DNA from: a virus
Taxonomy: Duplodnaviria; Heunggongvirae; Uroviricota; Caudoviricetes
Virus record (IMG/VR): IMGVR_UViG_2563366861_000001
Location: 1-16,051 of that record
Length of the DNA: 16,051 bases
Strand: one strand, 5' to 3'
Of the stretch, positions 1 through 16,051 are shown piece after piece; the stretch's first letter is position 1; each line of letters opens with the position of its first letter. Made by a program: the position numbers and the translations under genes. The notes beneath the pieces were generated by a model. That model ran no database searches. It was not told the DNA's origin and saw only the letters and a program-made list of their open reading frames with translations.

Positions 1-187
1 GGGAAAGCTGCACGTAATCAGCAAGCGATATACGCAGCGAATTGAGCGGCATAACCTGAATCTGAGGCAGCACCTGGCACGGCTGGGACGGAAGTCGCTG
101 TCGTTCTCAAAATCGGTGGAGCTGCATGACAAAGTCATCGGGCATTATCTGAACATAAAACACTATCAATAAGTTGGAGTCATTACC
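1..187 (+). mobile_element. IS1: IS1 insertion sequence, 3' portion (window starts inside the element); ends with the IS1 terminal inverted repeat ...CACTATCAATAAGTTGGAGTCATTACC at 161-187
   Basis: Bases 1-187 are the exact reverse complement of 15588-15774; encodes the InsB C-terminus and ends in the canonical IS1 terminal repeat (recognised from memory of IS1). Confidence 0.93.
2..172 (+). CDS. insB: IS1 transposase InsB, C-terminal fragment (5' end outside window)
   Basis: Translation of 2-172 gives [56 protein letters not shown] then TAA at 170-172, the same C-terminus as the 15603-15980 ORF on the minus strand. Confidence 0.9.
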
Positions 188-2266
188 GCCTCTCACGATA
201 TTACCTTTGTTGGTATTGTACAGACCGCTAAAGCGTCCGGTATGGAACGTTTCCCGCTGCCGTATGTGCTGACCAACTGCCATAACTCACTCTGCGCCGT
301 CGGCGGCACTATTAACGGTGATGACCATGTTTTTGGTTTATCGGCGGCCCAGCGTTATGGCGGTATTTTTGTGCCTCCGCATATTGCGGTCATCCATCAA
401 TATATGCGTGAGATGATGGCAGGCGGCGGCAAAATGATCCTCGGGTCAGACAGCCACACCCGTTACGGTGCATTAGGGACAATGGCAGTCGGTGAGGGCG
501 GCGGTGAGTTGGTAAAACAGCTGCTTAATGACACCTGGGATATCGACTATCCGGGCGTGGTTGCGGTGCATCTGACCGGAAAACCTGCGCCGTATGTGGG
601 GCCACAGGATGTGGCGCTGGCTATCATTGGCGCGGTGTTCAAAAACGGTTACGTCAAAAACAAAGTCATGGAGTTCGTTGGACCGGGCGTTAGCGCGCTC
701 TCTACCGATTTCCGTAACAGCGTTGACGTGATGACCACTGAAACGACCTGTTTAAGTTCTGTCTGGCAAACCGATGAAGAAGTCCATAACTGGCTGGCGC
801 TGCACGGTCGCGGCCAGGATTACTGCCAGCTTAACCCTCAACCGATGGCGTACTACGATGGCTGCATCAGCGTTGATTTAAGCGCCATCAAACCAATGAT
901 TGCGCTGCCGTTCCACCCGAGCAACGTGTATGAAATCGACACACTGAACCAGAACCTGACCGACATTCTGCGTGAGATTGAAATTGAGTCCGAACGCGTG
1001 GCGCACGGTAAAGCCAAACTCTCGCTGCTGGATAAAGTGGAAAATGGTCGCCTGAAAGTGCAGCAGGGGATTATCGCGGGCTGTTCTGGCGGTAACTACG
1101 AAAACGTCATCGCGGCGGCGAATGCACTGCGCGGTCAATCCTGTGGCAATGACACCTTCTCGCTGGCAGTTTACCCGTCATCACAGCCGGTGTTTATGGA
1201 TCTCGCCAAAAAAGGTGTGGTAGCAGATTTGATTGGCGCAGGCGCAATCATCAGAACCGCGTTCTGCGGCCCATGCTTTGGCGCGGGCGATACGCCAATC
1301 AACAACGGTTTGAGTATTCGCCACACCACGCGTAACTTCCCGAACCGCGAAGGCTCTAAGCCAGCTAATGGGCAGATGTCAGCGGTGGCGTTGATGGACG
1401 CTCGTTCTATCGCTGCGACTGCGGCAAACGGTGGCTATTTAACCTCTGCCAGCGAACTTGATTGCTGGGACAACGTGCCGGAGTACGCCTTCGATGTAAC
1501 GCCGTATAAAAACCGTGTTTATCAGGGCTTTGTGAAAGGGGCAACTCAGCAACCGCTGATTTACGGGCCGAACATTAAAGACTGGCCGGAATTGGGTGCG
1601 CTGACTGACAATATCGTCCTGAAAGTGTGCTCGAAGATCCTCGACGAAGTGACCACCACCGACGAACTGATTCCTTCCGGTGAAACCTCTTCTTATCGTT
1701 CAAATCCGATTGGTCTGGCGGAGTTTACCCTGTCTCGCCGCGATCCCGGTTATGTTAGCAGAAGTAAAGCGACTGCTGAGCTGGAAAATCAGCGTCTGGC
1801 GGGGAATGTCAGCGAGCTGACAGAGGTGTTTGCGCGCATTAAGCAGATTGCTGGTCAGGAGCATATTGATCCGCTGCAAACTGAAATTGGCAGCATGGTC
1901 TATGCGGTGAAACCAGGCGATGGTTCTGCGCGTGAACAGGCGGCGAGCTGCCAGCGTGTGATTGGCGGTCTGGCGAATATTGCCGAGGAGTACGCGACTA
2001 AACGCTATCGTTCTAACGTCATCAACTGGGGGATGTTACCGCTGCAAATGGCGGAAGTACCAACCTTTGAAGTGGGGGATTACATTTACATCCCTGGCAT
2101 TAAAGCGGCGCTGGATAATCCGGGTACGACGTTTAAAGGTTATGTGATCCATGAAGATGCGCCGGTAACGGAAATTACGCTCTATATGGAAAGTCTGACT
2201 GCTGAAGAGCGCGAGATTATCAAGGCGGGTAGTTTGATTAACTTCAATAAAAACCGTCAGATGTAA
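188..2266 (+). pseudogene. ybhJ: Aconitase-family protein YbhJ, 5'-truncated by the IS1 insertion (frame is open from the IS1 boundary; first ATG at 242)
   Basis: 674-aa ORF 242-2266 with aconitase-family character ([15 protein letters not shown]-like motifs) and recognised as YbhJ; the frame stays open upstream to the TAA at 170-172 inside IS1, so the native N-terminus (about 60 aa by my recollection of a ~753-aa YbhJ) is missing. Confidence 0.8.
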
Positions 2267-2282
2267 AAAGCGCCATGTGAAT

Positions 2283-2390
2283 GTAGGTCGCATTCGGCAC
2301 TTATTGTCGGATGCGATGCTTGCGCATCTTATCCGACCTACAAATCGCATCGAACCGTAGGCCGGATAAGGCGTTTACGCCGCATCCGGC
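2283..2390. repeat. REP/BIME: two repetitive extragenic palindromic units in the convergent ybhJ-ybhC intergenic region
   Basis: Palindromic units GTAGGTCG...CGACCTAC (2283-2341) and GCCGGATAAGGCGTTTACGCCGCATCCGGC (2361-2390), the classic E. coli REP consensus. Confidence 0.8.
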
Positions 2391-2406
2391 AAATAGTTAA
2401 TTGCTC

Positions 2407-14716: not shown

Positions 14717-14747
14717 AGTTGCCCATATCGATGGGCAACTCATGCAA

Positions 14748-15041
14748 TTATTGTGAGCAATACACACGCGCTTCCAGCGGAGTATAAATGCCTAAAGTAA
14801 TAAAACCGAGCAATCCATTTACGAATGTTTGCTGGGTTTCTGTTTTAACAACATTTTCTGCGCCGCCACAAATTTTGGCTGCATCGACAGTTTTCTTCTG
14901 CCCAATTCCAGAAACGAAGAAATGATGGGTGATGGTTTCCTTTGGTGCTACTGCTGCCGGTTTGTTTTGAACAGTAAACGTCTGTTGAGCACATCCTGTA
15001 ATAAGCAGGGCCAGCGCAGTAGCGAGTAGCATTTTTTTCAT
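14748..15041 (-). CDS. bor: Bor lipoprotein (serum-resistance lysogenic-conversion factor), 97 aa
   Basis: MKKMLLATALALLITGCAQQTFTVQNKPAAVAPKETITHHFFVSGIGQKKTVDAAKICGGAENVVKTETQQTFVNGLLGFITLGIYTPLEARVYCSQ; recognised as lambda Bor / DLP12 BorD. Confidence 0.9.
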   Translation of the reverse strand: MKKMLLATALALLITGCAQQTFTVQNKPAAVAPKETITHHFFVSGIGQKKTVDAAKICGGAENVVKTETQQTFVNGLLGFITLGIYTPLEARVYCSQ

Positions 15042-15331
15042 GGTGTTATTCCCGATGCTTTTTGAAGTTCGCAGAATCGTATGTGTAGAAAATTAAACAA
15101 ACCCTAAACAATGAGTTGAAATTTCATATTGTTAATATTTATTAATGTATGTCAGGTGCGATGAATCGTCATTGTATTCCCGGATTAACTATGTCCACAG
15201 CCCTGACGGGGAACTTCTCTGCGGGAGTGTCCGGGAATAATTAAAAACGATGCACACAGGGTTTAGCGCGTACACGTATTGCATTATGCCAACGCCCCGG
15301 TGCTGACACGGAAGAAACCGGACGTTATGAT

Positions 15332-15587
15332 TTAGCGTGGAAAGATTTGTGTAGTGTTCTGAATGCTCTCAGTAAATAGTAATGAATTATCAAAGGTATA
15401 GTAATATCTTTTATGTTCATGGATATTTGTAACCCATCGGAAAACTCCTGCTTTAGCAAGATTTTCCCTGTATTGCTGAAATGTGATTTCTCTTGATTTC
15501 AACCTATCATAGGACGTTTCTATAAGATGCGTGTTTCTTGAGAATTTAACATTTACAACCTTTTTAAGTCCTTTTATTAACACGGTG
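15332..15587 (-). pseudogene. ybcV: YbcV-like (DUF1398) gene, 5'-truncated by the right-hand IS1
   Basis: The reading frame …[83 protein letters not shown] runs open into the IS1 terminal repeat; the ORF-track start at 15601 is a TTG inside IS1. Family name recalled from the DLP12 gene order, with moderate certainty. Confidence 0.55.
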
Positions 15588-16051
15588 GGTAATGACTCCA
15601 ACTTATTGATAGTGTTTTATGTTCAGATAATGCCCGATGACTTTGTCATGCAGCTCCACCGATTTTGAGAACGACAGCGACTTCCGTCCCAGCCGTGCCA
15701 GGTGCTGCCTCAGATTCAGGTTATGCCGCTCAATTCGCTGCGTATATCGCTTGCTGATTACGTGCAGCTTTCCCTTCAGGCGGGATTCATACAGCGGCCA
15801 GCCATCCGTCATCCATATCACCACGTCAAAGGGTGACAGCAGGCTCATAAGACGCCCCAGCGTCGCCATAGTGCGTTCACCGAATACGTGCGCAACAACC
15901 GTCTTCCGGAGCCTGTCATACGCGTAAAACAGCCAGCGCTGGCGCGATTTAGCCCCGACGTATCCCCACTGTTCGTCCATTTCCGCGCAGACGATGACGT
16001 CACTGCCCGGCTGTATGCGCGAGGTTACCGACTGCGGCCTGAGTTTTTTAA
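15588..16051 (-). mobile_element. IS1: IS1 insertion sequence, partial (runs off the window end), inverted relative to the IS1 at 1-187
   Basis: Begins with the IS1 terminal repeat GGTAATGACTCCAACTTATTGATAGTG at 15588; 15588-15774 is the exact reverse complement of 1-187. Confidence 0.95.
15603..16049 (-). CDS. insB: IS1 transposase InsB reading frame (5' end outside window)
   Basis: …[68 protein letters not shown]…HYLNIKHYQ, recognised as IS1 InsB. Confidence 0.92.

Follow-up and report, generated by a model that had tools for sequence, protein, structure and literature searches.

The composite transposons Tn9 and Tn1681 each consist of DNA bracketed by two copies of the insertion sequence (IS) IS1, which are direct in Tn9 and inverted in Tn1681, and the lambdoid prophage DLP12 of Escherichia coli K-12 is located at argU. 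An IS copy that lacks a target duplication is usually explained either by an adjacent deletion or by recombination of two direct IS copies (PMC11708052). The stretch of DNA analyzed here, a virus record of 16,051 nucleotides (nt; IMGVR_UViG_2563366861_000001, hereafter the window), begins and ends in IS1 copies of opposite orientation that enclose a 5′-truncated ybhJ, ybhC and much of a defective lambdoid prophage interrupted in ybcV. We conclude, with a probability of about 90%, that the window corresponds to a single contig from a scaffolded E. coli draft assembly and that its two IS1 copies are separate and ordinary events, a simple insertion on the right and an IS1-linked deletion on the left. 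The feature is ordinary and of a known kind.

The window contains a single inverted repeat, in which positions 1–187 and 15588–15774 are 100% complementary over 187 nt; no further repeat of at least 20 nt was found within the window. An earlier interpretation, made from the letters alone (the sequence-only reading), had described these arms as perfect reverse complements derived from IS1 ends, and both the repeat search and the Pfam matches agree, as the translated arms match PF03400 (DDE_Tnp_IS1) with E = 9.6e-29 on the left and E = 1.6e-78 on the right. Both arms represent the InsB C-terminus and the right inverted repeat (IRR) end of the element, with the 23-nt IRR at 165–187 and at 15588–15610, and both show 100% identity to an annotated IS1B copy of strain NCTC9040. 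The left arm (1–187, plus strand) encodes the InsB C-terminus at 2–172, with its stop codon at 170–172, and breaks off at base 1, where a scaffold gap adjoins it. The right arm (15588–16051, minus strand) is longer, comprising the IRR-proximal 464 nt of IS1 with insB running from 16049 down to 15603, and extends to the last base of the window. Because the window edge cuts the left copy, the arm length of 187 nt is biologically meaningless.

The sequence beyond both edges was supplied by scaffold KB732958.1 (GCA_000352045.1, draft E. coli, 2.18 Mb), which was reached by exact-product look-up of the truncated YbhJ (674 amino acids, aa); look-up of the InsB fragment at the right edge led to the same scaffold. 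Scaffold and window are 100% identical, with no mismatch over 12,266 and 10,449 overlapping bases. In the scaffold, 450 N directly precede window base 1 and 120 N follow the last base, and both of these gaps lie inside IS1. The window is thus the stretch between two N runs, and both of its edges are therefore assembly breaks inside IS1, as the sequence-only reading had allowed when it named a contig boundary at a repeat among its possibilities. The assembler was unable to read through the two IS1 copies and so produced a contig that starts and ends in IS1, which is why an inverted repeat seems to frame the window. The terminal inverted repeats of IS1 are GGTGATGCTGCCAACTTACTGAT (left, IRL) and GGTAATGACTCCAACTTATTGAT (IRR), and the scaffold retains the IRL of both copies. 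Genes for InsA (Zn_ribbon_InsA) are called across both gaps, and the InsA and InsB frames meet at the A6C frameshift motif TTAAAAAAC. Adding the IS1 parts to the N runs gives approximately 905 bp on the left and 781 bp on the right, against 768 bp for IS1, where the middles of both copies are N and the gap sizes are estimates. The right-hand contig break falls exactly at TTAAAAAAC (window 16043–16051), and a break at this motif recurs at another IS1 of the same scaffold (L018 10001). The 148-aa InsB fragment that starts from this break is indexed in 764 collection blocks, and several of the contigs shown start there; assemblies appear to break systematically at this motif.

The window was compared by megablast with 5,426 complete E. 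coli genomes, and its interior genes were named from the annotation of relatives together with the gene calls and Pfam matches of the scaffold. Positions 170–15587 are 99.9% identical to A14, NCTC9040, NCTC9041 and similar strains; ybhJ and ybcV are intact in A14, NCTC9040 and others at the same 99.9% identity. The A14 locus (L001) serves as the coordinate reference below.

The right IS1 is a plain insertion in ybcV. In the scaffold a perfect 9-bp target duplication, CACCGTGTT, stands directly at both ends of the element; on the opposite strand it reads AACACGGTG, and it is present as a single copy at 21940–21948 in the IS1-free relative A14. The inner copy occupies window 15579–15587 as AACACGGTG, and the same 9-mer is found on the outer side of IS1. 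The sequence-only reading was correct that this 9-mer and the one flanking the left arm (188–196, GCCTCTCAC) are not duplicates of each other; nonetheless, AACACGGTG is one copy of the right element's own duplication. The target is AT-rich (32% guanine plus cytosine, GC). Inside the window lies the 3′ part of ybcV (15332–15587, minus strand, 256 nt, DUF1398), which matches PF07166 with E = 9.9e-26 at profile positions 46–119 of 119. Across the right gap the scaffold continues with the left end of IS1 (IRL and InsA) and then the 5′ part of ybcV (61 aa, DUF1398), which had been considered missing and a search for which had been proposed. It is followed by ybcW, ylcI, Nu1/truncated nohD, tail-fibre genes, an AraC-family (appY-like) gene, IS3-family fragments, an attachment (att) core, ybhB and bioA. 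This att core, attR, has one mismatch and adjoins ybhB (L017 1636–1650). The gene order beyond the right IS1 is that of A14; no DNA has been inverted or lost, and the distal part of the prophage stays in place. The earlier statement that each IS1 cuts off the 5′ end of a gene therefore holds for ybhJ and ybcV inside the window, whereas in the scaffold ybcV is merely split; and the proposal that an IS1-mediated inversion or deletion had removed the rest of the prophage fails at the right copy, beyond which the distal prophage genes, attR and ybhB follow in native order. IS1 simply transposed into ybcV of the defective prophage, generating its usual 9-bp duplication and leaving all else as it was. 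The right junction was found in none of the 5,426 complete genomes and, because of this absence, looks strain-specific and recent. An exact-product look-up with the 89-aa truncated-ybcV open reading frame (ORF; TTG at 15601) also returned no match.

The left IS1, by comparison, is an IS1-associated deletion. Its outer 9-mer, AGCTGCTTT, lies in ybhD (L001 2370) and its inner 9-mer, GCCTCTCAC, in ybhJ (L001 6017), and the two do not constitute a target duplication. Outer-end duplications, which the sequence-only reading had suggested looking for, are thus found at the right copy (CACCGTGTT, 9 bp) and not at the left. The 3,646 bp that separate L001 2370 from 6017 are absent, comprising the 5′ part of ybhD, ybhH, ybhI and 183 nt (61 codons) of ybhJ, which starts at L001 5834; across the left gap the scaffold shows the left end of IS1 with its outer flank inside ybhD. 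The remainder of ybhJ (188–2266, plus strand), encoding an aconitase-family hydratase without its first 61 codons, has its first in-frame ATG at 242 and from there an ORF of 674 aa. We read the left copy as a deletion because there is no duplication and adjacent DNA has been lost. Two routes could have led to it: one IS1 end may have transposed intramolecularly into nearby DNA, giving an adjacent deletion, or two direct IS1 copies may have undergone homologous recombination; any order of events at this end is likewise proposed from the product. The exact outer-left junction occurs in none of the complete genomes, and none of them holds both window junctions together. An IS1-mediated deletion had been among the earlier proposals, and it is real at the left copy; what was lost, however, is chromosomal (ybhD 5′ to ybhJ 5′, 3,646 bp) and not prophage DNA. 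The further proposal of two independent IS1 insertions is upheld in the sense that the copies derive from independent IS1 events, the right with a duplication and the left with a deletion.

Three other explanations of the paired IS1 copies were weighed. Recombination between them could have flipped the 15.4-kb segment relative to the chromosome, as a pair of inverted 768-bp repeats at a distance of 15.4 kb can validly act as a substrate for such an event and the contig alone (IRR–segment–IRR) looks the same in either orientation. In the scaffold, however, the ybhJ side faces ybhD-pgl-ybhA and the 3′ part of ybcV faces its 5′ part, which is the native A14 order, and the 9-bp duplication has its two halves at one and the same IS1, the right-hand copy. 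This order rests on scaffolding and not on contiguous reads, and we consider an inversion very unlikely. It is more improbable still, to the point of being negligible, that the pair of IS1 copies was inserted together with the enclosed DNA as a unit, in the manner of Tn9 or Tn1681. Inverted IS1 pairs can mobilize the DNA between them, and a real example, IS1(−)-ORF-IS1(+) with the 9-bp duplication ACCCTCGGC, is found approximately 400 bp away in H10407 and SEC470. The outer flanks here, AGCTGCTTT and CACCGTGTT (AACACGGTG on the window plus strand), are nevertheless not duplicates in either orientation, the right IS1 has a target duplication of its own, and the interior is the native ybhJ-ybhC-attL-prophage order seen in the 99.9%-identical relatives that lack IS1. 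The sequence-only reading had already set aside a simple composite-transposon insertion on the basis of the flanks, and the native interior agrees.

The repeat might instead be an assembly artefact, either one collapsed IS1 or a chimeric join, given that the assembly broke within a multi-copy repeat at either end of the window and that the right junction has no independent confirmation in the complete genomes. Against this, within the contig the two arms run without a break into different unique flanks, and the left junction is found independently in the complete genome of EF7-18-51, in a draft genome (L010) and in two gut-metagenome contigs. Moreover, the right copy has a perfect 9-bp duplication matching a site that is single-copy in relatives, which a chimeric join would not give. 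We regard an artefact as improbable to nearly the same degree as an inversion. Our preferred interpretation, one contig carrying a simple insertion and a deletion, has points that weigh against it as well. It is the depositor's scaffolding, and not contiguous sequence, that links the flanks across each IS1; the left gap estimate is approximately 137 bp above the need of one IS1; the right junction is supported by this assembly alone, for which the look-up reports the contig in 3 samples; and at the left copy an adjacent deletion and recombination between IS1 copies would leave identical products.

The end point of the left-hand deletion in ybhJ is a re-used IS1 target, an AT-rich patch beside a mimic of the IS1 right-end tip. 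Junctions between the IRR and ybhJ occur at L001 6015 in a draft genome (L011), at 6017 in the present strain, EF7-18-51, draft L010 and the two metagenome contigs, and at 6018 in the IAI39/CE10 group and one metagenome contig. The IS1 variants joined at 6017 differ; the orientation of IS1 is constant across the three positions, and its tip is complete. Directly 5′ of the junction lies the 18-mer TAAGTTTGATTCATTAGC (L001 6001–6018, ybhJ codons 56–62), 15 of whose 18 positions match the IRR tip. Nowhere else in the locus is there so good a match to an IS1 end, and within 27.9 kb this 18-mer alone matches the IRR tip with at most 3 mismatches (0.02 such matches expected by chance). The patch has 24% GC, compared with 51% for the whole gene. 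IS1 prefers AT-rich targets, and some of its hot spots resemble its ends, as Galas, Calos and Miller in 1980, Zerbib and colleagues in 1985 and Gamas and colleagues in 1987 reportedly found; we take this as a lead and not as a test.

Based on these observations we tentatively speculate that TAAGTTTGATTCATTAGC attracts the IS1 transposition complex as a decoy end and directs repeated joins, in one orientation, into an adjacent 4-bp interval; we consider this possible and rather doubtful, and any causal role of the end-like sequence would follow from its position and resemblance. Two related ideas were rejected. End-likeness is not a general feature of IS1 targets in this locus: 16 of the 17 other end points score only at background (9–12 of 18), and the DAM site reaches 15 of 18 solely since the ±25-bp test window extends to TAAGTTTGATTCATTAGC. 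In-register crossover between an IS1 end and the 18-mer was rejected because a crossover within the shared TCATTA would yield …CATTAGCC; the junctions instead keep the full tip (…CATTACC) and then continue with native bases from 6015, 6017 or 6018. Two points weigh against repeated targeting: some of the junctions at 6017 may share one origin and have spread by recombination, and several junction loci were found via the exact 674-aa truncated product, which introduces an ascertainment bias. A scan of GTDB species representatives for the left junction gave 0 matches, and a full-text literature search for ybhJ together with IS1 returned nothing relevant on this site. Other elements were also seen here. 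An IS5 (L012) lies at the spot of the 18-mer, and within approximately 45 bp downstream there are an IS10 (L014) and two more IS1 junctions (L008 and L009, at 6052).

Other genomes show related IS1 events in the same region. In about 20–27 of the 5,426 complete genomes, an IS1 end lies no more than a few hundred bp from this portion of ybhD or ybhJ. In H10407 and SEC470 the composite element mentioned above comprises IS1(−), an ORF of 165 aa and IS1(+) (L029 772–3090) and is flanked by the duplication ACCCTCGGC at L001 5601–5609, the 3′ end of ybhI; the ORF product is WP_000148192.1, for which only a sub-threshold match to EamA was obtained. EF7-18-51 has the same element (L005 17772–20090) and is unchanged at the left junction; on the right, however, the IS1 end meets ybhJ at 6017 and 407 bp are lost, which makes the comparison of EF7-18-51 with H10407 and SEC470 informative about the direction of the event. 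Among the loci compared, arrangements of the form ybhD′-IS1-ybhJ with variable end points are present in several unrelated strains, for example GDSC2227PM (L030), 14EC001 (L031) and PSS-13 (L032), and in YJ6 (L028) the whole of ybhD is lost, leaving pgl-IS1-ybhJ. In each of these four a single IS1, in the same orientation, replaces ybhH-ybhI and the 5′ part of ybhD (all of it in YJ6). Because several unrelated strains show such a replacement with different end points, these data suggest that IS1-linked loss of ybhH and ybhI is recurrent. The draft contig LVMP01000266.1 opens with an untrimmed Nextera/Tn5 mosaic-end adapter, AGATGTGTATAAGAGACAG, fused to ybhJ (L013 1–19). A 3.98-Mb contig (L008 5094–10000) carries gpmA, a CAT-GFP-TetR cassette, the left end of IS1 and ybhJ from 6052. 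It has the look of an engineered strain from which the stretch between gal and ybhJ was deleted; for BL21 the genotype is given as delta(galM-ybhJ) (PMC11011186).

Between the two IS1 copies the window follows the chromosome into the prophage. Downstream of ybhJ, ybhC (2407–3690, minus strand) is intact and is the last chromosomal gene before the prophage. It is followed by attL, with the lambda att core GCTTTTTTATACTAA at 3737–3751 on the plus strand (one exact match, 0.00 expected by chance), and by genes for a lambda-type integrase (3825–4895) and an excisionase (4873–5091), both on the minus strand, with Pfam matches to Phage_integrase, Arm-DNA-bind_1 and Exc. The exact core, the lambda-type int/xis and the second core (one mismatch) next to ybhB place the prophage at the lambda attachment site between ybhC and ybhB. 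The body of the defective DLP12-like lambdoid prophage (5131–15041) opens with a DUF2513 gene and contains a truncated recT (7560–7979) adjoining a ren fragment, the run ybcN-ninE-ybcO-rusA-ylcG-quuD (9814–11687), a phage-borne porin gene (11876–12958, minus strand), the lysis genes essD-rrrD-rzpD (13546–14716) and bor (14748–15041, minus strand). The junction of truncated recT and the ren fragment (window 7979–8000 region; L001 14367) is common to this prophage and all close relatives, and the whole region from N to P, for immunity and replication, is absent; the prophage is therefore defective regardless of IS1. Two segments are shorter here than in A14: the ybhJ-ybhC spacer (window 2267–2406) measures 141 bp versus 234 bp, approximately 93 bp of repeated unit fewer, and around window 7536 there are 438 bp fewer of the Ea22/TraR region. 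The close relatives vary among themselves too in both segments.

The apparent IS1-bounded module is thus a draft contig that ends in repeats, together with two routine IS1 events, and as such it matters little; the deposited scaffold already resolves the questions that the sequence-only reading had raised. It does argue for caution before inverted repeats at the ends of a window or contig are read as biology. The ybhJ target is a modest curiosity; studies of IS1 target choice could use it as a small, naturally occurring test case. If the decoy idea were true, the site at the 18-mer would be a natural nucleotide-precise IS1 target and, taken with the ybhD-ybhJ deletions in unrelated strains, the ybhDHIJ cluster would be a predictable site of IS1-driven gene loss.

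Compared with the described systems, the right copy resembles a simple insertion of IS1 (IS1A/IS1B, IS1 family) in its IRR and IRL tips, its InsA and InsB frames, its 9-bp duplication and its AT-rich target, and there is no substantive difference, the middle of the element being 120 N. The left copy is like other IS-associated deletions in that the IS is kept, there is no target duplication and the flanks are 3,646 bp apart in the reference; it differs in that its end point in ybhJ, abutting an 18-mer that resembles an IS1 end, is re-used within 4 bp across independent lineages. With Tn9 and Tn1681 the locus shares two IS1 copies bracketing DNA, here inverted; unlike them, it has no duplication around the unit, and its interior is native. 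Finally, the prophage shares with DLP12 of E. coli K-12 the late genes ybcN, ninE, ybcO, rusA, ylcG, quuD, the porin gene, essD, rrrD, rzpD, bor, ybcV, ybcW and nohD; in contrast to DLP12, it carries int/xis of the lambda type and occupies the lambda att site.

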